Of a stretch of DNA of 64,000 bases, positions 2,011-56,613 are shown piece after piece. Every line of letters begins with the position of its first letter. Within the stretch, counting starts at the first letter, position 1. The position numbers and the translations under genes were made by a program. Below the pieces are notes generated by a model. The model was not told where the DNA came from and made no database searches. It was given only the letters and a program-made list of their open reading frames with translations. The stretch comes from Octopus vulgaris (lineage: Eukaryota): NCBI GenBank assembly GCA_951406725.2, contig OX597837.1, positions 46,748,001 through 46,812,000 of the forward strand, read 5' to 3'.

Positions 2011-2989
2011 TTCTTTTCTGGTTTTAATTATTTAAATTCTTCCTTTGAAGAAGGGGCTGGTTTCTAACAAAGATACAAAGCTCCATCGCTGGAAGATAGA
2101 TATTGAAAACAATGTCACATTTTAAACTTAAGAAAAGTCTTGCATACTTTTACTGTTCCACTTACAGATTGTATTCATAATGGGCAAGTCAGTCAGTTGA
2201 TTTCTTTCTCTGGAAATCCAAGCTTATATGTGTGTGTGTGTGTGTGTGTGTGTATGCAGTCTAATGATGTGAGCTACATATATTTTATATACAAACACAT
2301 ATGCACATACGTTGGTGTGTATGTTTGTGTGCATATGCATGTGTATTGTCCCTGATAAAATAGCAATTGTCCTGGGGCTGACATATTCAGGAAAACTTTA
2401 TTAACCCACCGATCAGAACTATCAAAATCCCCTTTTAAGGTTCTCTCCTAATTACTTACAACATACACACATCTATAAAATCGGGAACAAAACTAACATC
2501 TGTTTGATTATACATTTTATATTATTGAAATTAAAATTATTTATTGTTTTTATCTTTAGTCTTTTTAATTTATATATATATTTTTTTTTTTTGTGATATT
2601 TACTTAAGGGAGGATTAACAGTACCCATGACCTTTTTCAAGCCCTCTTTCTTAAATGAGAGTCATGTGATTCATGTCTAGTTTGATGATATAATCCATAT
2701 AGCAGAGACAAACTATAGATTAAATAGAAATAAATAGAAAAAAAAATGGGCTTTAAAAAAATTATACTTCAAAAACTGTCCAGTTTTATGGTTGGCAGAG
2801 TAACCTCCCCTGGAAATATTTTGGTTGAAAATTGTTTCAACCCCATGGTAACCTTAAACACATTATTTGTATAGGCACATATGGTAGGAATGAGCATTAG
2901 AACTATTTACAAAAGCAATATATATATGTACTGCTGCTTGAGTCATCTGAAACCATAAGTCAGGGAGAAGATGTTAGTAGAGTGAGTAA

Positions 2990-3310
2990 ATTGTCTGAAT
3001 TTTGTAGTGTTAATTATCCATCACAGCTGGTCATACCAATTGGTTTCGTGTGAAATTATATAATGGAGTGTTAGGCAAGAAACCAGTCATATAATGTACA
3101 CTCGTCAGAGATAGCCAATATGGAAAGGGAAATGGTGACTGCTCTCCACTGTGGAAAGCAGTTGCCATTTCCCCTTCCATGTCAGCTATCTCTGACGAGT
3201 GCACATTATATAACTGGTTTCTTGCTTAACACTCCATTATGTAACTTCACACGAAACCAATTGGTAAGACAAGCCGTGATGGATAATTAATACTATAAAA
3301 TTCAGACAAT
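2990..3310. repeat. 321-bp fold-back palindrome (Penelope-like terminal-repeat derivative)
   Basis: Arms of about 160 bp are reverse complements around tccac-t-gtgga at 3150, with scattered mismatches. Confidence 0.93.
3189..3269 (+). ncRNA. Minimal type-I hammerhead ribozyme-like motif
   Basis: tct-CTGACGA(3192-3198)-GTG...CAC-GAAA(3253-3256)-CCAATTGG-TA-aga: canonical core, palindromic stem III, GUA site. Confidence 0.65.
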
Positions 3311-4312
3311 ATATATATATATATATTAGAATGTTAATAAGCCATGTTGTACATTTATCTCTTAAACAAACCCCATTGAGATATGATGACTTAATTGTTC
3401 AAGGGTTTCAGAGGTATGGCTTGATCCTAGATGCAAATTGAAACAGGTAACACATACTTAGTTTTTCAGCTACAACATAAAGATAATAAAGTGTGTTCTG
3501 TGATAAATTAGTTAACATCAGGAAAAAAAAGGGTCGGGGAATGTCGGTATATGGAAACAGAAAAATAATACCTTCTTTCTATGAAAAGTATGGACATCAA
3601 AATAAGTCTGCTATGTAGCATTTTCTTTTTGTCTTGGTTCTTATCCATGCAGTTCCGTTATTCTTAAAACTGGGTTTAACCATTTCGTCTTGAGTTCTCC
3701 ATCATTTAACACATCAAGGTATATCTTCCATCATCAATTAACTGTCCCTGTTTTCCACCTGGCATGGAGAGTCTATTCACATTGTTACATATGTAAATCA
3801 AGGTGACAAACTGGCAGAACCATAAACACTTCAGACCAAATTCTTGGCAGTGTTTCTCTTGGCTTTACATTCTGAGGCTGACTTTGTCTTTCATTCTTTC
3901 GGGGTTGTTAAACTAAGTACCAGTCGAGCCTGAGGTTCATGTAGTTAACTATCCCCCTCCCCGTACATTTCAGGCCTTGTACCTATAGTAGAATGAATTA
4001 TTATGTATGCAAATCACATTCTTCATATTCAACACATTCTCCCCCCCCCCCACTTCAATAGCGATTCTTCAATTGATCATTATCGATTATCATATTTTCT
4101 TCTTCTCTGCTTCCATACATTCTCATAACTCTCTGTCACTATGAGAGAGCTTAGTGATCTTATCTGCTGATCTTTTAGGATTCCTCTGCTCGACATCAAT
4201 GTAAGAAGCACCATTAGCTCAGTGGCGCTTTTCTGCTACCTCTTCACAATCTGCCATGTTGTAGTCCCATGACTTCCCTGTATCCCTCGCAGGGTGGCTG
4301 AATGGGAACTAT

Positions 4313-4610
4313 AATAATAATGAAATTATTGTCTACAGTGCTCAGGTGCACCACAACTTGTCAAAAGTGTGTATAAAGTGTATGCAGTAATGTACAAATA
4401 TCTGGAAAGTGAACAGGGTATGAGTCAGATAGATGCTTGTGTGTGTAAGGAGGGGAGAAAATCAGATGTAGTGTTGGCGAATCTCAGGAAGCATGGAGGT
4501 TTTGAAGGATGCAGTGTTCCGACAACTAACAACTGATGCTGGCAGTTTGTTCCATACTTCAGTAACTTTTAGCATGAAAAAATGTTTCCAAAAGTCATGG
4601 GAACTATGCT
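4313..4610 (-). mobile_element. CR1/L2-type LINE 3' fragment
   Basis: Translates as KHFFMLKVTEVWNKLPASVVSCRNTASFK, the typical ORF2 C-terminus, followed by a (TTA)n tail. Confidence 0.8.
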
Positions 4611-5293: not shown

Positions 5294-7151
5294 TGCACGT
5301 GTGTGTGTGTGCATGTATCATATATTAAATATTCATATATCAAAATTTGGGTATTTATTATTTTACAATATTATTTAATTTGGCTGTGATATTTGCTTTG
5401 AAATGGAAACAGAGGAAGATGGAAGATAATTCCAATATTAAGGGATATTAAAAAAAAAAGAAAACCAAACATGTTTCCCAATTTGTTTCTTGTGTGTGTG
5501 TGTGCACGCACGTGCGTGTGGATGTGGTCAGAATCTGGTGGCACTTTTATTGAAACCTCTGCAAGCTTTTGAAGACTTTTTGAAAGATATTGTGGAATTC
5601 TGCCTTTTAATATAACATTTTTGAACAGCCCTGTCATTGCTAATGACTTGGTCTCCAATTAGGAGTTCAGAAGAAGACTATATTTGTGCAGTTACCCAAT
5701 GGCTTCTGTCAGTTCACAGAACAATTAAACTATGTCCCATCAGCCAATGAAACACTCATTTATTCAATGCTGCCTTTATCTATTCACTGCGGTCTGTATT
5801 TATTCAATGCTGAATCTATTTATTCAGTGTTGCTCACTTTCCCTAATCACAGCTGTGTCTACTACTTCATGGTTCCTGTTTACAGCCTAGTGAACTGAGC
5901 CTACCTACAGTAATTTAGGTATTTTCTCCTTGGAAAAAGCATAGTACTGTAATAGGATTTGGAGTTTTGACTTATTAATCATTAGTCAGAGTCATTTAAT
6001 CATGTCACTCATTGTCATTTAGTTATATAATTGATGTTGTTAAATTTGGACAGGAAAAAAACTGTTTTGAATGTTAATCAATTATTTTTTTAATTAATAT
6101 ATCATCATTACCTCCTCCTCCTTCTCTTTCTCCTCTTTCTCCTTTAACCATTGTTTGAGAAATTCATCCGGTGTTTCTTGCATTTAAAAGAATTAGGTGC
6201 ATCATGGAAGAATATGAATAAAAAAGATGGTTAAACAAATGTGAGAATGTCGTCCTGGTAACATTCTCAGACCATTGTTGTGTTATTTGCTGGACTGTAT
6301 CCCTATGTGCTAATATAATAACCAGCTTATTGCATACAATGTTCAGGTGTGCTAATTGCATGCAATGTTCAGGTGCACTACGACTTGTCAGAAAAAGAGT
6401 CAAGGAAGTTAGCAATAATAATGAAAAATGCAGGCATAGTAAACAGGATAAAATGCTAAAGGACAGAAAAATGAATGGTAAAAGAGCCGTAATGATAAAA
6501 AAGGTGCATAGGCACAAGAGGTGTAGTGTTTGTAAATTTTGGGAAACATGGAATTCTGTGAAGGATCCAATATCCTGATAGCTAACAACCAATATTAATA
6601 GTTTGTTTCATTGCTTTAACAATTCTGAGTATGAAGAAATGTTTTTGAAAGTCATGGGTGCTGCACTGGGTTTTGATTTTATAAACATGTTCATCGGTGG
6701 ATCTTTTTATGTTAAAAGGAAAGTCATATTGGATAAGTTAGTCCTAAATAGACTATGCCAGGAAACAAGATGTGATGGGCACAGCTGAGATGTCTTTGAT
6801 TGTGGGCATGGTCAATCAAAGTTGAGGTTAAACAACAATTGCCAGCAAAGGCTATGGTTTTGTTCCGGTTTGTCTTTGATAAGGTTTCAGTCCTTCATCT
6901 GTAAATAAGTCTCATAGGGTAACACAGCAGTTTTCTGAAACCAACAAGATTATCAGTGTATAAATCTGGGGAAAGTATCTGTGATATAGACTAGCACCTT
7001 ATCCAGTGAAGGGCTGGAGAGATGTTCTCATCTTTATACAATGCAAACTGATTTAAGTATCCTAAATGTGACTCATTGGCATCAAGTTAAAGCAATTCAT
7101 GCTATGCATCTTTATTGTAAACATACACTAACAGACTTTTTCAAAAACCAG

Positions 7152-7191
<40 letters not shown>

Positions 7192-7938
7192 CTTTAACAT
7201 CCACTTTTCCATAGTCACATGGGTTGGACAGAATTTGTTGAGGCAGATTTTGCACATCTGTAAACCCTTCATGTTGTCAACCCTTGCCTGCTTCCAGGCA
7301 AGGTAATATTTTCCTGTGACCAGCCGTGTCTTGGAAGATTGGTAATGAAGGACAGTGCTTACATGATAGTGACACTTACTTACAACTATCACATGACGTC
7401 AAGGCAAGGAGACAATAATACACCCACTCATGTACAATAGGCTTCTCTCAGTTTCCATCCACCAAATCCACTAGTAAAGCTTTACTCAGCCTAAGGCTAT
7501 AGAAGAAGACCCCTGTCCAAAGTGCCACACAATGGGACAATTGAACAACCAATCAACTATTTCTCACCCTCAACATGTGATGGAGAACAGTGAGAAAAAT
7601 ATAAAAACAAAATTCTGTGATTTGGATAAATTGTTAAAATTATGTTTTTAATGATATCTACCTCTTCTAAATGAAAAATCATAAAAGAAAGAGTATGGTC
7701 CCTGTCCCTGTAAGCCATTAGGTCATGGATAGCCACAGAGAGGATTGAATAAATATTTTACCATATTTTTTTGTTTATTTTATCATATTTTATCATAGGG
7801 TGCCAGAAGCTCAATTTGCAACCCCATGGTTTCAGGTTCCGACCCACAGTTAATGCTGCTCTGTAGTAGCCTGATGGGTGCCTGGCATCTTTTATAGTGA
7901 AACTGAGCAGGGTTGGTGGTATTGACAGTAGCTGGATA

Positions 7939-8345
7939 AAGGCGGCAAGCTGGCAGAAACGTCAGCATGCCGGATGAAACGCTTAGCCGTATTTCGTCTG
8001 CTACTACGTTCTGAGTTCAAATTCCGCTGAGGTCAACTTTGCCTTTCATCCTTTCGGGGTCGATAAATTAAGTACCAGTTACGCACTGGGGTTGATGTAT
8101 TCGACTTAATACGTTTGTCCGTCCTTGTTTGTCTCCTCTGTGTTTAGCCCCTTGTGGGTAGTAAAGAAATAGGTATTTTGTCTGCCGTTACGTTCTGAGT
8201 TCAAATTCCGCCGAGGTCGACTTTGCCTTTCATCCTTTCGGGATCGATAAATTAAGTACCAGTTATGCACTGGGGTCGATATAATCGACTTAATCCGTTT
8301 GTCTGTCCCCTCTGTGTTTAGCCCCTTGTGGGTAGTAAAGAAATA
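7939..8345 (+). mobile_element. Family-A SINE, full copy plus tandem 5'-truncated second copy
   Basis: tRNA-like head with B box gagttcaaattcc; body repeated at 8172-8345. Confidence 0.9.
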
Positions 8346-22298: not shown

Positions 22299-22583
22299 TT
22301 ATCGGACCTCTCCCCCCAGTCTTTGTGCCACAGCCTGTTCAATGTTTTGATGAACCAGATTGACTTCCTGCTGGGTTAAGGTCTTTAGCAGATGGCGGTA
22401 AACAATTCTATAGCAGTGACTGTGTCTTTTCTTCTTGCTGTGGTAAAACTCGTCAACACGAAATACTTGCTCCACCATGTTGCCTCCAATTTCACGTACG
22501 AGTTCATAGAAGTTGTTTTCTTCATAGTTGTCAGGAAGCCAGAAAGAGATGTCGTTGAGGCACTGCGGGAACTGACTCACAGG
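22299..22583 (-). CDS. FARS2: FARS2 coding exon 6 (last): [17 protein letters not shown]...LGGEVR*
   Basis: ttttcag acceptor, phase 0, TAA at 22299-22301; ferredoxin-fold anticodon-binding domain. Confidence 0.95.
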   Translation of the reverse strand, partial: PVSQFPQCLNDISFWLPDNYEENNFYELVREIGGNMVEQVFRVDEFYHSKKKRHSHCYRIVYRHLLKTLTQQEVNLVHQNIEQAVAQRLGGEVR

Positions 22584-25500
22584 CTGAAAAATAGGAATAA
22601 AGTTATGGTAGTAAAGCAATCAGACAGAACGCTTAGTGGCATTTCTTCCAGTTTTATTATGGTTAGGGTTCAAATCCAGCCAAAGTCGACCTTACCTTTT
22701 ATCCCTTCAGGATTGATAAAATGAAGAACCAGACAAGTACCGAGGTCAATGTAATCACCTTATCTGCTAGGTACAAGGTGAGAGGGAATAGGTGGGGCAG
22801 GAGTGCAAGGAGTATGTGGGAGGGGTAGGGGATGTCTATTACAGGGCAGCAGAATAAAGATGATACACTAAACAGGAGCAGGGGGGGAGATATTAGTCCT
22901 GCTATAATTGTAATACATGGATACATATATTGTCATAGATGATAAGAAAAAAGTAAAATAAATAACACAAAAATGTTTACCTTATATGTGATTGGCGTGT
23001 GTGGATCATCAACCTGGAATTGCGATAGGAATCCAGAATCTTTGCTCCAAAAGAGTCGGATGTCTGGAATTTGGTAGAGACACATGGCAAGACGTTCTAG
23101 CCCAAGACCAAATGCCCAGCCCACCTGAGAGCCAGCTCCAGCTGAAACAGATAAATATATATTCAACATGTAGGGGGTAACAGAAGGGATCGTATCAGAG
23201 GACATATTTGAGTTCTAGGATTTCTACATCAGTTTAATACTGATTTCCAGCTTAGGAGGTACGAGGCTAAATATTGCGTGGAAGGAGAAGAGATGCTCAA
23301 AGTTCAAAATCTTGCTGAAGTCATCTTCGTCTTTCATCCTTTTGGAGGTTGATAACATAAAATATCAGTCAAGCGCTAGATACAGATTCCAATAACATGA
23401 TGAAGGGGGGTGAGGAGGTTGAAAAAAAACAACAAAATATTTAATTTTAAAAAGGCTAAGAAAGAACAAGATTCGAATCAGAAATCTAGAGGAAGGCAAC
23501 TAAATATTGTTTTCAACTTTTGGGACAAGGACAGCAGTTTGGGGGGCAAGGGGCAAGTCGATTACATCGATCCCAGGGTTCAAATAATATTTATTTTATC
23601 AACCCTGAGAGAATGAAAGGCAAAGTCGACCTTGACGGAATTTGAACTCAGAGCGTAAGGACGGACAAAATGCCACTAAGCATTCTGTCCGATATAGTAA
23701 CGATTCTTCTAGCTCGCTGCCTCGAGGCAATTAAATATTGTAATGCATTTAATCTTACGGTTTTAATAATTTGTAACGGTTCAAACTAATTCTTGCTAAA
23801 AATTAAAATAATCAAAACTATTGTAAGAGTTGTCTCCCATACTCCGTCACAGACTCGGAATAACGATTAATGATTCTATTTTTTCTGACAGCCTAATTTT
23901 TTTGTTTGTTTGTTTGGTTGTGTGTATTCCCCATCTTAAAAATGTTAAAATCAACTTATATAAACATTAACCATGCTAACCAATGCCAGTTGTTGGTACC
24001 AGACATACTCGAGAAAGCCTCAAAATGTCACAGTGATTTTAACTAAGGTCTTTCTTCTCAGCCCTGAAGCAGCCCCGAGTGTCTCTTGCTTTGCTTCAGA
24101 TGTTATGGAGCAAAATATATATGAGAGACAGGTCTGTCTCTGAAAATTACACAATGTTACATAACATTCCCAGAGGATATCTACAATCTGTCCACAACAG
24201 CTTTGTGTCCTACATAGAAACATAATGAAATAGTTGTAGTGAATTTGAACTCCAAATCTAGGAGTTGCTAGAATGTAAACATGCCTTGTTTTCACGTTTA
24301 CAAACCTTCTGTAGAGTATTACATTGACCAGCACAATACTTATGTTATCGACCTTGAAATGGCAAAAAACAAAGTGGGCTTGTGTAGGATTTGAACACAG
24401 AATGCAAGGAGACGTAACCAAATTTACTGGTTTCTATCTGTGAAATTCAATTCCTAAGCTTTTGGCTAAGTTGAAACTAGAGTAGAAGATAGCGCCAAAG
24501 GTGCTGTGGAGCAGGGAAGAAACTGGACCCATAGAATTAGTGCAGACATCCTAACCATAGAACCCCCATCCGGACACATAACAAAATGGAAAACGAAAAT
24601 TAAGGAGCAAAAATTTAAAGCATTCAATTCTTTGGTTTTACCTGTGTGTAATATTTCTTGTTCAATGATTCCACATCCGAGTAATTCCATCCATTTGTCT
24701 TCGTATTTAATTTCAAGCTCCCAAGATGGATGTGTAAAAGGGAAGTAAGCAGGAACCCATCGGACTTCAATATCTAAACATAAAAGCAAATAAGAAAAAT
24801 TGAAAGAAAAACTGCAAAAGAATAATCTTTTAATCAATCAGGAATTCAAAATTTGATATTTTTTTCCCTTTCTTCCACACTAAAATAATTTATTTATTCT
24901 AAGAACTCAGAGGAGACAGAGCAGTCTCACTGCCCCAAGATTTTTTATCATAGCCTCTGAGATTGACAGGAAGAAGTTATCCTAAAACCAGAGACCTCAT
25001 TCAAACACTTCCAATAGAGTAGTTTCAAAATTTAGGTTGCAGGGGTCATCAAAAGCGAAAGCCTTGAAGTAGTGGACATTCTCTCCCGATAACCCCGGAA
25101 ACCTATTATTTTGGAGCAGTGAAGGATTAAATCTATCATCCAAAAACAGGATTCCGTCTAAGAATTTTCACTCATAAAGCTTCGGTCAGTCCAAACGCTA
25201 TGATCAAATACATTTCCACAAGACACCAATTTAGTTGAATAACTAATTGAGCTGGAGAACTGAACTGAACCCTTGCCTTCTGATTGATGTTTCAGCCCCA
25301 GCCAACAAAAAGAACAAAGTTTGAGAAATTTAATGGAGAAATTAGGATTGTCATGACAATAAAACATGCTCAGAAAACTGCTTTACTGAGAACAGCAAAG
25401 ATCTTCAGATTAGTACATGGGTGTTAAGTATTGTAGAAAGAGACCCTGTGAGACCTTTGAGAAAAGGTTCGTCATGCGCTCTTACAGAATCAGCCAGAAC

Positions 25501-28500
25501 AAATGAAACTGAGAGATCTGAGAAATGAAATATACAAACTATAATAATAATAATAATAATCTTTTCTATTACAGGCACAAGGCCTGAAATCTTGGAGGGG
25601 AAGGAGCTACTTAATTACATCAAACCTAGGGCTTACCTGGTTCTTATTTCATCAACCCCAAAAGAACGAAAGGCAAAGTCAACCTCAGTGGAATTTGGGC
25701 CCAGAACATAGAGGTAGACCAAATGCCACTAAGCATTTTGTCTGGTATACTAATGATTCTGCTAGGCTGATCGGAACCAATGGGTCCAAAGACTGTATCA
25801 AGCTCCAATATCTACTTTGGCCCTTCCTAACACCAACCACCTTAATGACAATAGTGGTTTTTAATACAGGTAGAAGGCCTGAAATTTTAATGGAAGGGGT
25901 TCAATGAAGTCTTTTTGGCTTTGATTGAAACATACTTCCATATGTTTTATAAAACCTACTTACTGGTACCAAATAAATGGATGGCTAAGTTTAGCAAGCA
26001 ATTCTTCAAGTCTTCTTCTATTAGGTTGATCACTTCCCTTCTGTGATAGGCTTGTTTGTCATCCAATCTTTCCCCTTCCTCAAAGAGACACTGGCTGCTG
26101 TCATTCTGAAACAACTGGAACAAACAAAAGAGGACACACAACGTTAAGGAAACACTGGAAAGAGATAGAAAAGTGATTGCATTCCAACACAAACACACAC
26201 ACACACTTCAGGTGTGTCTGCATCAACTACTTATATTGTTTAGCTTCAGGCCAACCCTCAAAGTGAGACTTGGAAGGGCAGTAAGAACAGGTAAAAATAC
26301 TAAATGTATTCCATCAAAGGTGAGTCAGAAAGACCCTAAAGGTCAACTGGTGGCACAGTGTCACACCTGAGAAGATTCTAAGAAGAGGAAGGTTATAAGT
26401 ACTGCAAGAGATTGTAGCAGAATGCCGATTCCACCTGGCTAGCAACATTCTCAGTCTAGCCAGTCAATGGCACTTGGAAACTACTTTGACTTGGACACAG
26501 CTGGTTAGCAAGCATAAAAAAGGAGCAGGTAAGATCCCTTGGTAGTCGACATTTCAAGACGACCTGAAGACAGTCAACATTACATGGAATGGACATGCAA
26601 GAGTAGCAACTGACCCGAGCCTGGTGGAGCAAACAGGTTGCATAATGTGCTGAGCAGCACAGGAGGACCTAAAATCTCTGAAGGGACATTCTACTTACCG
26701 TGTGTTGCGTAAAGAGTCGAACTCCTTCAACTTGATGAAACACTGGAAAATGAGTTTGGTCAATAGAATCACGGCGATAAACATCACCAATCACTAGAAA
26801 AGCATCCAATCCAGATCGTATAAGATCACATTGATGGGCCGATGTGTGGGCTCTGAGCATCAAGTTGGAATTAATATAGTAACTGTCACTGACTTTTCGA
26901 CTCACATGGTCAGCGGGAACCAAAAGACTGTCAAAATTTTGCCATGTGGTGACCACAGGACTAAGGTTGTCATAGACTGAAAATAGAGGGTTCCCTCGTG
27001 AGTTTCTAAAATAGTTGTATGTAAATGACTGTATTCTCTGACGAATTAAGTTAAGTGGGTGGTGCTTCTTGTTGTGAAGGTTCTCTCCAAGTTTTGAAAC
27101 TATACTTTCACTAATGTTAGTAACTGAGTCTCTGGGATAATGCTTATCCAAGACGGAAATGGATTTATTGTCTGTGTGTTGCTTACTGTTAAATACACAT
27201 GAACTTGTGAATCGTCGAGACAAAGAACATTTCGAACGCCAGCGAAATAAACATAGCGAATACCTGAAACGAGAAAAAGTTAATATTTTTGGAATTAAGC
27301 TTTTTAAAAACGGTTTCCAACACAAATTGTGTGTAATAAAATCAAGTAATATAGAATAAATAAAGATTTCAAATGTTAGCACAAGGCCAGCAATTTAGGG
27401 GGAAAGGGTAAGTGCTCAGCTGGTACTTATTTTATTGACTCTGAAAGGATAAAAGGAAGGTCAAGCTTAGTGAAATTTGAACTCAGAAGGTAGAGATGGA
27501 CGAAATACTGTTACGTCCAGTGTGCTAATGATTCTGCCAGCTCAACACCTTATAAGGAGTAAATAATAACTTCAAAGTTACAGTCACAAATTTGTGAGGA
27601 AGTAATCCATTAAATTAAGCCTTAGTACTTGCTGGTACTTATATTTTACTGAACCTGGAAGGATGAAGGTAAAAATTGACTTTGAAATCAGATGGTAAAA
27701 AACCAGAACAAATACTTATTTCTTTACTGCCCACAAGGGGCTAAACATAGATGGGACAAACAAGGACAGACAAAGGGATTAAGTCGATTACATCGACCCC
27801 AGTGTGTAACTGGTACATATTTAATCGACCCCGAAAGGATGAAAGGCAAAGTTGACCTCAGCGGAATTTGAACTCAGAACGTAACAGCAGACGAAATACT
27901 GCAAAGCATTTTGTCTGGCGTTCTGTCTCCCTTTATCTTTTGTCATAAATAGAAGATGGCATTTTGGATATAATGCTTTGTGGCGTTTGTCCAGCCTCCC
28001 TGTTTGGAGGGTGGGTTTTCTGCTAGTATAAATAATGTTAGAAGACATTCATATTACAGTGTGGTTTTCCTGAAGAACGATGATGGCATTGATAATGAAG
28101 ACAGAAAAGGTAAAATTAATTTAAGGGGGACCTGAACTCACTTGAAGTGGCATAACCCACCATTGCAGGTCATTTGGTGAACCTGCAGGCACTGGTGCCA
28201 CATAAATAACACCTATACTGCACTACACAGAAAAGCAGTGTTCCAGTGCCACCATGGAAAAAGTACCCAGTACACTCTGTACTGGTGTCCAACTATAGAA
28301 ATCAGGCTGAAACACCACGTTAGGAGCAGCCATGCTGGCATCACATAAAAAGCAAACTCATGCCTGCACTACACAGAAAAGCAGTGTTCCAGCACCATGG
28401 AAAAAGCAGCCAGTACACTCTGTGAAGTGGTTGGCGTTAGGAAGAGTGTCCAACTATCGAAACCAAGCTGAAACAGAAGACCGGGGTCTGGCACAGCCTT

Positions 28501-43469: not shown

Positions 43470-43640
43470 CACACATGCGTATAAACGAAAGAGAAGAGAC
43501 GAGAAAGAGAAAGTGTGCGTGCGCGAGCGTAGAACTCTTCTGTGTTTGGAAGTGAGTGGAGCTCTCCTGCGTCAGTTGCAAAAAGGTTGTTGTTGTTGTT
43601 GTTGGTTGTTTTTTGGATTTCATTTTCAGGAAATGCTAAA
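43470..43640 (+). promoter_or_regulatory. Putative UBFD1 promoter and 5' UTR
   Basis: CpG-containing gtgcgtgcgcgagcg (loosely NRF1-like) just upstream of the start exon. Confidence 0.4.
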
Positions 43641-43656
43641 ATGGCCGAAGCTGCAG
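43641..43656 (+). CDS. UBFD1: UBFD1 coding exon 1 (MAEAA)
   Basis: aaaATGG context (also YY1-like AAAATGGCCG); CAG|gtgaga donor, phase 1. Confidence 0.7.
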
Positions 43657-44791
43657 GTGAGAAGGATTCGAAACTTGTAGCAACTTGTAGCCAGGGTGCA
43701 AGATTAGCTACCTACCTACCTACCTCCACTCCATTGCACCACCACCCCCAACACCACACTTTTCTTTATTTAATTCAACTCTTATTAAACACACACATGC
43801 TGCACATACATATATATACATATATACACATGTATACACACATATATATACATATATACACATATATACACATATATATACATATATACACATATATACA
43901 CATGTATATACATATATACTCATATATACACATGTATATACATATATACACATATATACACATATATACACATGTATATACATATATACTCATATATACA
44001 CACACACATGCTGCACATACATATATATACACATATATATACATATATACACATATATACACATATATATACATATATATACACACAAAATGTCTCTTAG
44101 ACGGAGGAGCTGTCTTTCACCCTTAATTTTTCTCGACCCTAAAAAATCTGGTTACAGAATATTTTTCTTACAGTTTAAACTTTGCCATTCTTGAATTCAT
44201 TTCTCATTCTTTTACACATGTTGTTTATAATTGTGGAATAAGGAAAGCATCGAACGTTTCTCCAAGAAACAACTCAACCAAATACAATCAACTGAGTCCG
44301 AAAAACGCATTTCGTGTTCTTCTAGGGTTTTCTTTTTCGAATAATACCATATATATGTATGTATATATATATATATATATATGTATACATATACATACAT
44401 ACATATAGATAGATCTATATATTTATATATATATATATATACACATGTATATATGTATATATATATATGTATGTATATATATGTATAGGATGTTAGAGGG
44501 GTTCCCAGGGAATCCAGCGAAGCATATATTCTTCACATTTCATTTAGAAACCCAAATTATATTATTTGTGGATATTTTGAAATGGATTTTTGCAAAAGCC
44601 ATATTTTATACAGAACTGTGAATTTCCTGTTTGTACAGAATTAATATAAGTTTAAGTAGTTGGTTATTGTATTGTATTGTATTGTATTGGGAAATGCTTC
44701 ATACTTTCTCCTTTGTACCATATTTGAGCCGAGAGTAATTTATACATATGTTGCTAACGCCATATATACACAAATGACACAACAGTCTGTG

Positions 44792-47800: not shown

Positions 47801-50800
47801 TGATGCTGGGTCTCAAAACGCAGACACCATGACGGCTGCTCAATGCTCTGTGACCATTATAAAGGCTGTAAGAAGTGACATGGATAGCTGCACTGGAGAC
47901 TACCCAGCCATGGCCAACAGGAAGGGACACAGCTATTGTTCTGACTGGTGTCCACATGCTGGAATCCATCCACCAACTGCAGGAACAGGTCCTTAGGCTC
48001 AATTCAGATGGCTACGGGAAGCTGCCGGAGACTGTAGTGAAACCCTGGCAGGAGAGGGTTGCTACTGTAAGGCCATGTGTGTGGCAGCAGGATTTGGCTC
48101 CTTACCTTACCTCCGGAAATCATCAGACATGGTTGTCAGAGAATTTCTGTGACTTCACCAGCCCCAATTTCTGGCCTCCTAATTTCCTTGATTGCAATCC
48201 TTTGGATTACTGTTAGGGGTATGGTTGAGAAAGACATTAACTGCTCTGTATGTAACACCAAGGCCAAGTGGTGAAGGTCAAGGAGGTGTTTGAAGATCTT
48301 CCCAGGGACACAATGAGGAATGCTTGTGTCAGGTTCCAGAGTCATCTTGAAGCTGTGGTGGAAGCTGAGGGCAGTTACTTTGGAGTAAACCATTATCATC
48401 CAGCCCTAATCTGGTTGATATTTAAAAAAGTTTTTTAAATACTTTTATTTTTGGATGGGATATTGTTTTCCTATCCTTTTATGCAAAGTGTCAAATTTAA
48501 CCCCAACCCCCTGTATAAATGGATGCCAGTGAGTATAAATGTGCGAGTGTTCGTTTCACCTTGCCTTGACATCCCATAATTGTTGTAAATGATTGTCATT
48601 CAAGCAGCATCATTCATTTCCAATATTCTGTGAAAATATGTCTGGCCATGGGGGAAATATTACATTCCATGCAAACAGGTTATGGATTGGTGACAGAAAG
48701 GGCCATCCAGCCTTAGAAAACTTCCCTTGATAACTTTGTCCAACCCCTGCAGGGATGGACATTAGAACGATGATAATGTATTTAGGACGATATTCAGTGT
48801 GTCTTCTATTTGTTCCAACATGGTAGGGAGTGACTTGAAGGAGGTGTGGCTGCTATTTCTAGCAGGTCAAATGATCTTTGAGAGTGGCAGTTCTCAATCA
48901 AAGTCCATATGGCAATTTTGTATTTATTTAAAAAATTTTTTAGATATTTTGTTTTTAACAACTATTGATTGTTTATTTTTCATTTTCATTTTCATAGAAA
49001 ATTCTGAACTGAGTGCATTAAAAATGGAAAATGAACAGTTTGAATGTTCAGCTGATGTCAACGATTCATTGCCGAATGACGTGGAAATAACGGACAAAGA
49101 TGCTCAACCAACAACAGGTCAGTGGGTGGGGCTTTTCTTCTTCCTTTCTTTCCTTTCCTTTCTGCATCTCTTGTTGCAGCTGTTCAAATATACCAACCAT
49201 TGCTAACACACACCTTCATGGAACTTTACAATATATATACACACATACATACATACATACACTAGCAGAGATACCTGGCATTGCTCAGGATTAAAATGGC
49301 AAATGGCATAGCTTGTATATATATATATATATATATATATACAACGGGAAGATTTACGAAAATAAACAAAAGACGAAAGCAGGTGGAGTACAAACAAACA
49401 ATTGTATTAGTATGGTGCTCAGGAATAGAAATAAAACAAGTCTTTTACGTTTCGAGCCGACGCTCTTCAACAGAAAGATACATAGAAAAGAAACAAGGAG
49501 AGAAAAAATGCGTGTAGGAGCTAACGGTCCAATATATAACAGTTACGTTGGAACAGGTGATATGGGCAAGTACAGTATTAACAAAACATTTGTGGAGTAA
49601 TTTTAAAGCTTTGCAGAAACAGCAATTTCAGTCCAGCACACCAATTGTTTCAAGCATTGTCGTTCAGTGCTTGAAACAGGGAGTAGAAGGACAGACGACA
49701 ACTGATGAAGGGTTGTCTTTTACGTTACTTGTCTTGTCTTCCATTTGTTTCTCTCGTTGTTTGTGTACCCAATTTTATATTCGTATTTCATGTTATGTTT
49801 TGTGACGTCCTGTACCCATATATGCACACACATATATATATATATATATATATCATCATCATCATCTTCGTTTAGCGTCCGTTTTCCATGCTAGCATGGG
49901 TTGGACGGTTCGACTAGGGTCTGGGAAGCCAGGAGGCTGCACCAGGCTCCAGTCTGATCTGGCAGTGTTTCTACGGCTGGATGCCCTTCCTAACGCCAAC
50001 CACTCCGTGAGTGTAGTGGGTGCTTCTTACGTGCCACCTGCACAGGTGCCAGGCGAGGCTGGCAAACAGCCACGATCGGTTGGTGCTTTTATGTGTCACC
50101 AGCACAGGTGATGTCACTGGCACGGGTATATATATATATATTATTTGATTGAACGCCACGCATCCATTTCCAAGTAAGTTTATGTATATAAAAATGCATG
50201 TGCATGCAGTTATTGGACTGTGACCCCAGGTTGTCTCTACCTTCAATGGTTTCAGTGATTCTACTCATTATTTATACTCGATCACTTACTAAATGTTTAA
50301 TCACCGTCAGTGCTTAAACCGTTTTGTCTCCAATGGAATGAGTTCTGCATCATTTAGAACCAATATATTGGGTTGCCTTAACTGTGGTTGGACAGATGGA
50401 TTCAAATGTCAGTATTGGAAACAAAGCAAGTGTATTCATTGATGACCTGTAACATTTTCATGTGATCCATTTGCAGCTAACTGGATTGATTTAAAAAAAA
50501 AAAAATTATTTAGAGATGAAATGTCTTCACTTTGTCACAATATGCCACTGTTCTTGTGAACATGAACTATCAGCTCCTTTACTAATTAGCTGGCACTCAA
50601 CCAGCTTACTAATCTGATGTTCTATATACATTATATATATGGAGCTAGTATGCTTACAATGACTTGGCATTGTCCCAGCATGCCTAGCTAGACCAGTATC
50701 TACATTCATACAAAAGTACAAATGATGTACTTTTTTTATATGTTCCAAATTGGTTTGGGTTTTCTGATTCACAGTTTGTCTGCAGCTCTCAGTTGTACCC

Positions 50801-54900: not shown

Positions 54901-56613
54901 AAGTGGTGATGAGGTATGAGGTGGGTAGGAACAAGTGGGGCAGGGGTGTCAGGAGTGAATGGAGGGAGTGGCAGATGTCTGGTACAGAGCAATAAAGGAT
55001 GCAGTGGTTATGGTTTTCTCAATTAGAGCCGACTAGAACCTAAACAACAACATAGTTTGTCACCTCAGTTACTCCCAATTTTTAACCTATCTCTCTCTTT
55101 CTCTGACCATTGGTTTCAGTTGTCACCAGCAGACCAGTTAGATTCTCTTCTGTTTTTCACTTAACTGTTTTTTTCCCCTTCTCTTATTCCAGGTGTTCCT
55201 GCTACCATGCAAAAAATTATGTTTAAAGGTATTTCAAATTATTTCATTAAACTGTGTGCTGTGAGAAATGGATTTGTTTAGAGATGTAAAGAAGTAAGGC
55301 TTCTGGGAAAAGTATGTGTGTATGAGGGGGTGCTGAAAAGTTCCTGGCTTTGGGTAAAAGAAAATACAGGAGGATCAGTTATGATTTTATTGGACATATC
55401 CTCCTCTCAGATTCACATACTAATTGCAGAGGTCCTTCAGTTTTTCTAAGCCTTGTAAAAGACCAAGGAGGGTTGGTCTTCCAACCAGGCCTTTTTGCGA
55501 TACCTTAACCCTTTAGTATTTAAACTGGCCAAAATAGTTAATCTGTTTTATGTTCAAACTGACCAGATCCAGGCCCTCACACCTACCCTACAATGTTATT
55601 CTACATTAAGTAATTACACCATCAAAATCTTGAAGATATGAGATAATGCATGATTAATTCAAATCAATGGGAATCAACAAGCATTATGTTTGATTGAATA
55701 ATCTGAACGCTAAAGGGTTTAAGCTGTATGGGTCGTAGATAGTTTGTACCTCCTGAGTAAACCTTTGATAATGTTGTTACGTGTTATATTCTGTACGTAT
55801 ATATTTAATTTGTGCATTTTCCGTAGCTTATGTCAAAATAAACCTCAATGTTTAAATTTTGTAAATAAGGATTTAAATTTTCTCTTTCTTCTGTCACCCC
55901 CAAAAAAAAAAAAAAAAGGTTTAGCAAGAGACGATATGACATTGAGGGAGCTGAAAGTGACCAAAGGTGCCAAAATGCTTGTGGTTGGTTCCACTTTAAC
56001 TGATGTTCTTTCTGTGAGTACCCCCACAGGGGAAGATAAAGATGAAACCAAAGAGGCTGCCACTTCAAAAGAGCCTTTATCTCAACAAAAGGTAAGATTT
56101 CTTAAACTGCTGTCCTCCCTTATAATTTGATTATATGCCCCCTTATGCGTACTTTTCCTTCATTGGACACTAAATTCTGCTTGCGAAGACCTGTTGAGGC
56201 AAGTGAAATCGAATTCAAGTTCAATGACTGCCATCCGTGCTAGTGGAGCGCTAAGAGTACCATATTGTAGTTGTGATACCTGTGCTGGTGGCACGTAAAA
56301 AGCACCATTCGAACGTGGCCAATGCCAGTGCCGCCTTGACTGGATTCTGTGCCGGTGGCACGTAAAAAGCACCAACCGATCGTGGTCATCGCTAGCCTCC
56401 CTGGCACCTGTGCCAGTGGCACATAAAAAGCACCCACTACACTCTCGGAGTGGTTGGCGTTAGGAAGGGCATCCAACTGTAGAAACTCTGCCAGATCAGA
56501 TTGGAGCCAGTCCTCAGTCAAATCGTTCAGCCCATGCTAGCATGAAAAGTGAACGTTAAATGATGATGATGTGTTTGTATATATGTGCATGTATATATAT
56601 ATGTATATGTGTT

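Follow-up and report, generated by a model that had tools for sequence, protein, structure and literature searches.

Two head-to-head ends of a Penelope-like element probably form a transcribed and edited, hammerhead-bearing hairpin in Octopus vulgaris

Organization of the locus

The window, which is the whole 64-kb stretch of Octopus vulgaris DNA analysed here, contains an inverted repeat with arms of 163 nt each (2987-3149 and 3151-3313) that are 89% complementary and are separated by a 1-nt centre. The hairpin folds at -238 kcal/mol (z = -34.5), and none of 100 shuffled sequences was equally stable. A fold-back with a 1-nt centre had been noticed in a preliminary description of this DNA, and the inverted-repeat search and the fold, compared with shuffles, bear it out. 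The extent of 321 bp given there is slightly too small for the hairpin, which spans 2987-3313, and the left copy goes ~71 nt further, to 2916. The arms differ from one another at 18 positions (15 transitions and 3 transversions), with no G-U bias among the transitions (7 wobble and 8 A-C).

On its left side the insertion is bordered by a (TA)n-type flank (2904-2915), followed by a one-sided 3' "tail" of the left copy (2916-2986, minus strand, ~71 nt), which is unpaired in the hairpin. The left arm (2987-3149, minus strand) is assigned to the 5'-truncated 3' end, or pLTR region, of a Penelope-like element. The junction (3143-3157, with the 1-nt centre at 3150) lies on the element's own TCCAC/GTGGA mini-stem. 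The right arm (3151-3313, plus strand) is the inverted copy, ending at the shorter of the two 3' end points of the family, and runs into the right (TA)n flank (3311-3327), recognised from its sequence. The motif AATATATATAT flanks the insertion on both sides; it lies within TA tracts, and a target duplication is therefore indistinguishable from the tract itself.

Several other repeats are found in the window. A 115-nt inverted repeat (90%) has its arms at 2-116 and 433-547, 316 nt apart, and a degenerate direct repeat occupies 4324-4601 and 6325-6658, ~2 kb apart. A very abundant short repeat, probably a SINE, is present at 3858-4050 and 530-580, and reaches a contig depth of thousands in presumed RNA runs.

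The genes recognised in the window lie to the right of the hairpin. Exons of a mitochondrial-type phenylalanyl-tRNA synthetase (PF01409, PF03147) are located on the minus strand at 26672-27394 and 22302-22619, and the gene ends near 22300. Probable exons of a plus-strand gene are found at 43533-44123, 48766-49203 and 55723-56127; the frame at 55723 has no Pfam hit and presumably resembles UBFD1. In the 60 kb upstream of the window (L084-L089), plus-strand exons of an ERC/ELKS/CAST-type gene (PF10174) were recognised at L089:7814-8425, L088:1781-1951, L087:3830-4021 and L087:5483-5665, with further exon candidates at L087:2742 and L087:6461. The last recognised exons of this gene, which is the nearest one on the plus strand, are ~36-37 kb upstream of the hairpin. 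Its 3' end was not found: from L087 to position 22400 of the window there is one candidate exon (L087:6461) and nothing convincing nearer to the hairpin.

Hammerhead motifs of the two arms

The right arm contains a type-I hammerhead on the plus strand (3176-3283), recognised by a motif scan and a constrained fold. Its core consists of CUGACGA (3192-3198), GAAA (3253-3256), ACCAAUUGGU (3256-3265), the GUA triplet ending at 3266, and the UCU/AGA strands of stem I. Every part named in the preliminary description is present, and the arm is the sole match of the type-I scan in the 64 kb on both strands, compared with 2 matches in 30 shuffles. Stem I is formed by 3176-3191 with 3267-3283, the stem II region comprises 3199-3252, and stem III comprises 3256-3265, with the predicted cleavage site after A3266.

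The ribozyme had been described as a minimal one, with a short stem I of 3 bp and a long loop on stem II. In the constrained fold stem I continues as 3 + ~5 + 5 bp, and the 54-nt stem II region is predicted to form an irregular hairpin (3-4 + 8-9 + 3 bp); with both stems extended, the term minimal does not apply. Stem III folds as 3 bp closed by a 4-nt self-complementary loop. The palindrome claimed for this stem is present, with a predicted self-pairing energy of -13.0 kcal/mol, but its perfection is a derived state, as position 3259 is G in 36 and A in 17 of 55 family copies.

The corresponding motif of the left arm (3017-3124, minus strand) has kept an intact core and the GUGU/ACAC pairing attributed to it, but its first stem-I pair is broken. 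The arm reads GUA-UGA, with U in place of A after the cleavage triplet (the change is at 3033), and the resulting U-U pair beside the cleavage site explains why the left arm is not called by the type-I scan.

A check with covariance models, also suggested in the preliminary description, was negative: the hammerhead models of Rfam matched nowhere in the 64-kb window, whether at the gathering score or at E <= 10, likely because of the long stem II. No other Rfam family matched the window at its gathering score. The 15 weak matches at E <= 10, mostly to miRNA models, are all below the gathering scores and were rejected as a product of the long hairpin. The hammerhead form with a long stem II, as shown here, is thus one that Rfam misses.

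The copy family and its parent element

A search with the right arm gave 494 first-look candidates in the 2.8-Gb genome; as in every family search, only the best 40 candidates were scored, and these yielded 50 matches of 77-100%, both arms of the window included. The similarity among the loci reaches ~1 kb and more upstream of the arm, into a broken frame of a GIY-YIG-type endonuclease (EN), and of 20 loci retrieved with the EN region as query, 16 contain a match to the arm or its tail as well. One locus (L032) is nearly whole, with a broken reverse transcriptase (RT) + EN ORF at 5389-7245 and the hammerhead arm at 7847-7992. This and other copies align by tblastn over RT + EN to an intact ORF of 727 aa and end in the same arm. 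No element ORF was found by tblastn within the 64-kb window.

Pfam recognised nothing in four ORF pieces of the family nor in the intact 727-aa ORF, and the domain identity therefore rests on motifs, homologs and a published alignment; some homologs of the 727-aa ORF carry PF26215 or PF28514, and one carries PF01541. By these sequence comparisons the two arms represent the 3' end of a family of Penelope-like retrotransposons with an RT + GIY-YIG ORF, in agreement with the Penelope link proposed earlier. The idea of a tiny non-coding mobile unit is not upheld, as the arms belong to an ORF-bearing element and no two of 23 head-to-head pairs share a junction. As DNA, the locus is an ordinary one, a Penelope stump of which there are probably hundreds.

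The Hydra clade of these elements is marked by the RWK motif, DKT in place of DKG, a CxCx5C linker, (TA)n targets and canonical hammerheads (PMC8557442). In the family of the window, the RWK motif is present as MRWKAF in L032, and the linker (CSCR...C, with five residues between) is found in L041, L053, L040, L037 and L035. The only family copy that has an N-terminus, which is decayed, reads DKI, and a related young element reads DKT. The parent ORF is also close to Hydra-1_Obim by eye, with long runs of shared residues, a likeness that by itself would suggest an octopus-type cephalopod as host. From the motifs and this by-eye comparison with published sequences, the parent element likely belongs to the Hydra clade. 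Three short motifs of the window's family were not found in that part of the supplement text of PMC8557442 which was searched.

In the same searches two tail-bearing loci ~10 kb apart (L071 and L072, G000:C28) had identical printed flanks, and represent a local or assembly duplicate. Other palindromes of 190-480 bp and of unrelated sequence were met near family copies (L015:1777-1968, L005:94-567, L021:2885-3076 and L030:1228-1477, in oriented coordinates); it seems that insertions of fold-backs accumulate in shared TA tracts.

Anatomy and origin of the insertion

For a comparison of insertion ends, 113 loci were mapped on a natural long copy, giving 104 distinct 3'-end pieces in 80 groups (pieces short of the 3' side were excluded). 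The 3' ends form two clusters, with 40 pieces ending at arm positions 150-169 and 53 at 230-249, and 83 of 103 are touched by a TA tract, versus 12% of random positions. The tail, ~71 nt in the left copy of the window, is ~84 nt in other copies. No pile-up of 5' ends is observed at the predicted cleavage site (arm position 116): three of the 104 pieces start at 100-119 and nine at 120-139.

A single tail is present in 22 of the 23 head-to-head pairs and is lacking from the remaining one, and no pair is tailed on both arms; tailed pairs are over-represented in this sample, the tail having served as query in two of the four family searches. The junctions differ in all 23 pairs, taken from the best-scoring candidates, and the arms vary from ~60 to >1100 nt (in the L090 pair the tailed arm reaches the EN region). 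No head-to-tail tandem array was seen at the locus or among the mapped family copies. Differing junctions combined with a single tail suggest that each head-to-head pair was likely made afresh at insertion.

In published insertions of such elements, a 5'-truncated copy in inverted orientation adjoins the 5' end, and only one side carries a tail (PMC8557442; PMC3846280). In vitro, the Penelope protein nicks and extends both strands, with two start sites that delimit the tail, and the hammerhead is dispensable for insertion and cleaved only with the protein (PMC11167929). From the fixed 3' ends, the single tail and the published extension of both strands we infer one insertion of two short head-to-head copies. 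The protein of the element would have nicked both target strands and, beginning at the two start points of a single RNA, made two copies that stopped early and were joined at the element's own short TCCAC/GTGGA stem. One 3' end per arm, as seen in 22 of the 23 pairs, is what the in vitro start sites would predict. The family, with its two fixed 3' ends ~84 nt apart, thus offers a clean natural record of a poorly understood insertion step.

Two other routes to the inverted pair were considered, of which one concerns the joining step only. With the same origin, the inversion could have arisen when one cDNA (or an antisense template) snapped back at the mini-stem and primed its own synthesis, as the centre of the hairpin is on the natural TCCAC/GTGGA stem, the A at 3156 agrees with this stem's upstream strand, and self-priming from junction palindromes has been argued for in PMC3846280. 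However, the natural 8-nt loop of the stem is not kept at the window junction, the other junctions lie elsewhere and have overlaps or 2-250 extra bases, and snap-back alone does not explain two different fixed arm ends in 22 of 23 pairs; we consider it conceivable but rather doubtful. That the entire hairpin is copied as a non-autonomous element in its own right, MITE- or retrozyme-like, is highly improbable. Head-to-head pairs are common (23 in 80 groups), pLTRs can mobilise unrelated sequence in trans (PMC3846280), and the starts of 23 of 104 pieces fall together at arm positions 0-19, but this last clustering follows the start of the first query. The variety of junctions and arm lengths, the lack of a head-to-tail array and the continuity of the arms with an ORF-bearing element all speak against a unit copied as a whole. 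A MITE-like fixed fold-back was rejected on the 23 differing junctions of the best-scoring candidates, and a non-LTR retrozyme on the finding of only a head-to-head pair, with no tandem units, at the locus.

Age, decay and conservation of the ribozyme

The divergence between the arms is 0.12 (Jukes-Cantor), and each arm is 9% away from the subfamily majority, like the average copy. The arms share six derived changes; at least as many are shared in 8 of 595 subfamily pairs. On a published scale where 0.09 equals 25 million years (PMC13282606), 0.06 per arm corresponds to roughly 17 million years; the value is crude, is inflated by CpG decay and assumes the species. The insertion would be millions of years old and now decaying.

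Conservation and co-variation were analysed in 55 copies, with exclusion of 31 of 86 that did not span the hammerhead. At the 11 invariant core positions, CpG sites apart, the mismatch is 3.8% versus 7.0% elsewhere in subfamily A (p = 0.03) and 3.1% versus 8.0% in subfamily B (p = 0.01), while CpG core sites mismatch at 20-25%. The preliminary description had named a core no better conserved than its flanks as a finding that would speak against its reading; the core is indeed kept better, but only mildly, and it is intact in 28 of the 55 copies. The subfamilies differ from one another at 25 of 161 columns; these include the free position N7 but no position of the invariant core.

The hammerhead helices are paired in 79-94% over the 55 copies. 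Copy number and co-variation had also been put forward as a check; the former is reflected in the first-look candidates given above, and co-variation is seen at three of 34 tested pairs, all in stem II (p 0.001-0.02, uncorrected). RNAalifold did not recover the hammerhead fold from the family copies, as expected for decayed copies. We read the pattern as selection on the ribozyme in active source lineages, followed by near-neutral decay of the copies; selection on the copies themselves is a less likely explanation for the better-kept core and the stem-II co-variation. The ribozyme would have served the parent element and would be a passenger at the window locus.

Probable transcription and A>G changes

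The stretch is contained in 20 sequencing runs, none of them recorded as RNA and most presumed to be RNA, of which seven presumed RNA and one presumed DNA were examined. The evidence consists of single contigs at depth 4-7 from two studies. Flank-anchored arm contigs were obtained from three of the seven presumed RNA runs (both studies), and they show clusters of plus-strand A>G changes confined to the arms. In the left arm, the X10 contig (2759-3076) has eight of 25 arm A changed, at 3006, 3012, 3013, 3016, 3020, 3023, 3025 and 3033, against 0 of 78 flank A (p = 5e-6); it also has one C>T in this arm, and 0 of 24 A changed in the tail (2916-2986). The clusters of the right arm are located at 3229-3286. 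Here the X2 contig (3199-3546) has seven of 43 arm A changed against 0 of 85 flank A (p = 3e-4), and the X9 contig (3214-3846) eight of 37 against 1 of 176 (p = 3e-6), the single flank change being present also in the presumed DNA set, X18. The sites common to X2 and X9 are 3229, 3260, 3266 (the cleavage base), 3267 and 3272. Individual differences were listed for 7 of 11 in X2, 11 of 12 in X9 and 9 of 14 in X10. Runs X1, X4, X11 and X14 gave no flank-anchored arm contig among the matches listed and are evidence neither for nor against editing.

Changes on one strand in both arms are what would be expected if the arms pair within one plus-strand RNA molecule. On present evidence they argue for the ADAR-substrate duplex of the preliminary description. 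Edited sites have no 5' G (0 of 18, versus 8 of 68 arm A), which is in line with the ADAR preference and is too weak to count. Strand-biased A>G "fossil" editing is absent from the DNA of the window's arms. From the A>G changes in presumed RNA contigs, the hairpin is likely transcribed, folded and edited, instead of cutting itself.

The same clusters could come from assembly noise, paralogous reads or alleles at a locus that is not transcribed. The contigs are single and of low depth, the run types are presumed and the DNA is unmatched: X18 is a 2.2-Gb contig set from another individual, under another organism code. Moreover, 3251, 3259 and 3025 are CpG positions at which most paralogs have the other letter. 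However, none of the examined paralogs has more than three of the changed letters, the contigs reach 228-533 nt into unique flank, and all but one of the 24 listed arm changes are A>G on a single strand; they occur in both arms and in three samples from two studies, with five sites recurring between the studies. X18 spans 3005-3299 with two differences and no A>G in the right arm, and true SNPs of the X9 and X10 flanks (3476, 3535 and 3647) recur in it whereas the right-arm sites do not. An artefactual or allelic source is therefore improbable, and editing of a transcript is preferred. This transcript may be an intron or a downstream read-through of the upstream plus-strand ERC/CAST-type gene; no contig connects the hairpin to the ERC/CAST exons or to the phenylalanyl-tRNA synthetase gene.

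Predicted folding and fate of the ribozyme

In the whole RNA the hammerhead fold is ~106 kcal/mol (ensemble) less favourable than the hairpin, with a predicted probability of ~1e-75. For the right arm taken alone the predicted probability of this fold is ~4e-4, in a model that has no tertiary contacts. The earlier claim that the ribozyme is sequestered in a long duplex gains support from this model, and two contigs bridge the predicted cut site uncut. The A>G changes at 3256, 3266 and 3267 would disturb the core further. In four natural hammerheads a G at position 17 (the substitution studied being G, not inosine) slowed cleavage 8- to 100-fold (PMC3884650). By predicted folding and by editing, the hammerhead is probably a silenced passenger. 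Cleavage as a dimer through the palindrome is possible on paper, and would need a second free sense copy.

Taken as a whole, the hairpin very probably consists of two head-to-head, 5'-truncated, hammerhead-bearing Penelope-like ends, likely of the Hydra clade and brought in by one (TA)n insertion, which are likely read through, folded and edited by ADAR, the ribozyme being thereby restrained. The signs of editing across the ribozyme core, at transcript level and low depth, would account for the survival of a host transcript that contains a hammerhead, and the locus offers a ready substrate for tests.

A functional role of the hairpin for the host would be an editing-controlled ribozyme switch: the duplex would be opened by editing, and the cleavage of a neuronal ERC/CAST transcript would be adjusted in this way. 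The core of the right arm has survived ~6% decay per arm, a gene with a Cast domain is found upstream in the same orientation, and edits hit A15.1 (3256), the cleavage base (3266) and the first base of stem I (3267). An intact core is no surprise, however, when half of the copies keep it, and the edits are scattered over both arms, as in any long duplex. With the very low predicted probabilities of the hammerhead fold in the right arm and in the whole hairpin, the two contigs that span the cut site uncut and the lack of G-U bias among the arm mismatches, we hold such a switch to be most improbable. Hardly more probable is a broader version, in which inverted Penelope ends act as self-silencing ribozyme cassettes within a heavily edited transcriptome, ADAR edits the core and the cleavage base of the hammerhead itself, and the level of editing decides whether host transcripts with such stubs are cut (here probably that of presynaptic ERC/CAST); if true, an editing-gated ribozyme switch would recur at hundreds of loci. 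The restrained passenger is preferred over both.

Comparison with known systems

The closest counterparts are the inverted-pLTR insertions of EN+ Penelope-like elements (PMC8557442; Pen2a_Av, PMC3846280). They share with the window locus a 5'-truncated copy with an adjacent inverted copy, a tail at one end, a hammerhead in the terminal repeat and a microsatellite target. The window locus differs from them in having no ORF and in its longer tail (71-84 nt, compared with the published 30-40 bp). With the Hydra clade, and Hydra-1_Obim in particular, the family has in common the RWK motif, the CxCx5C linker, a C-terminal GIY-YIG-type EN, (TA)n targets, a hammerhead near the 3' end and, in L032, an element length of ~2.6 kb (PMC8557442). 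In the listed hammerhead of Hydra-1_Obim stem II consists of 7 bp closed by an 8-nt loop; the 54-nt stem II region found in the window marks a different family.

Pairs of hammerheads on opposite strands are already known since 2014 from truncated Penelope-like elements of Schistosoma, where they are 100-700 bp apart, like those of the window (PMC4209133). These minimal hammerheads have a short palindromic helix III and the G10.1-C11.1 pair, as in the window; in the window, in contrast, stem III has 3 bp and a 4-nt loop, stems I and II are long and no Rfam hammerhead model matches. Metazoan non-LTR retrozymes (bioRxiv 10.64898/2026.07.22.740005) resemble the window locus in being non-coding, in their type-I hammerhead and in their derivation from Penelope-like ends. 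They are head-to-tail tandem repeats, unlike the head-to-head window pair with its variable junctions.

Hyper-editing of inverted and palindromic repeats, including a lizard Penelope and octopus, is in print (PMC5625713). Clustered A>G changes on one strand of a near-perfect duplex are found there as in the window, where, in contrast, the edits fall on the hammerhead core and the cleavage base. A literature search with most subscription journals outside its scope found no published work that pairs Penelope editing with a hammerhead or a pLTR.

A related young element

The intact 727-aa ORF used above as a reference (L031:4348-6528, minus strand, G000:C12) belongs to a young, intact-looking Penelope-like element of Hydra type and has 1760 homologs at E <= 1e-20. 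Directly upstream of it, at ~L031:6544-6880, is a head-to-head hammerhead hairpin of 340 bp and 97%, and its 3' repeat ends in (TA)n. The hammerhead of this element reads CUGAUGA-A...A-GAAA, with no usual G10.1-C11.1 pair. The young element adjoins an old fold-back of the window's family.
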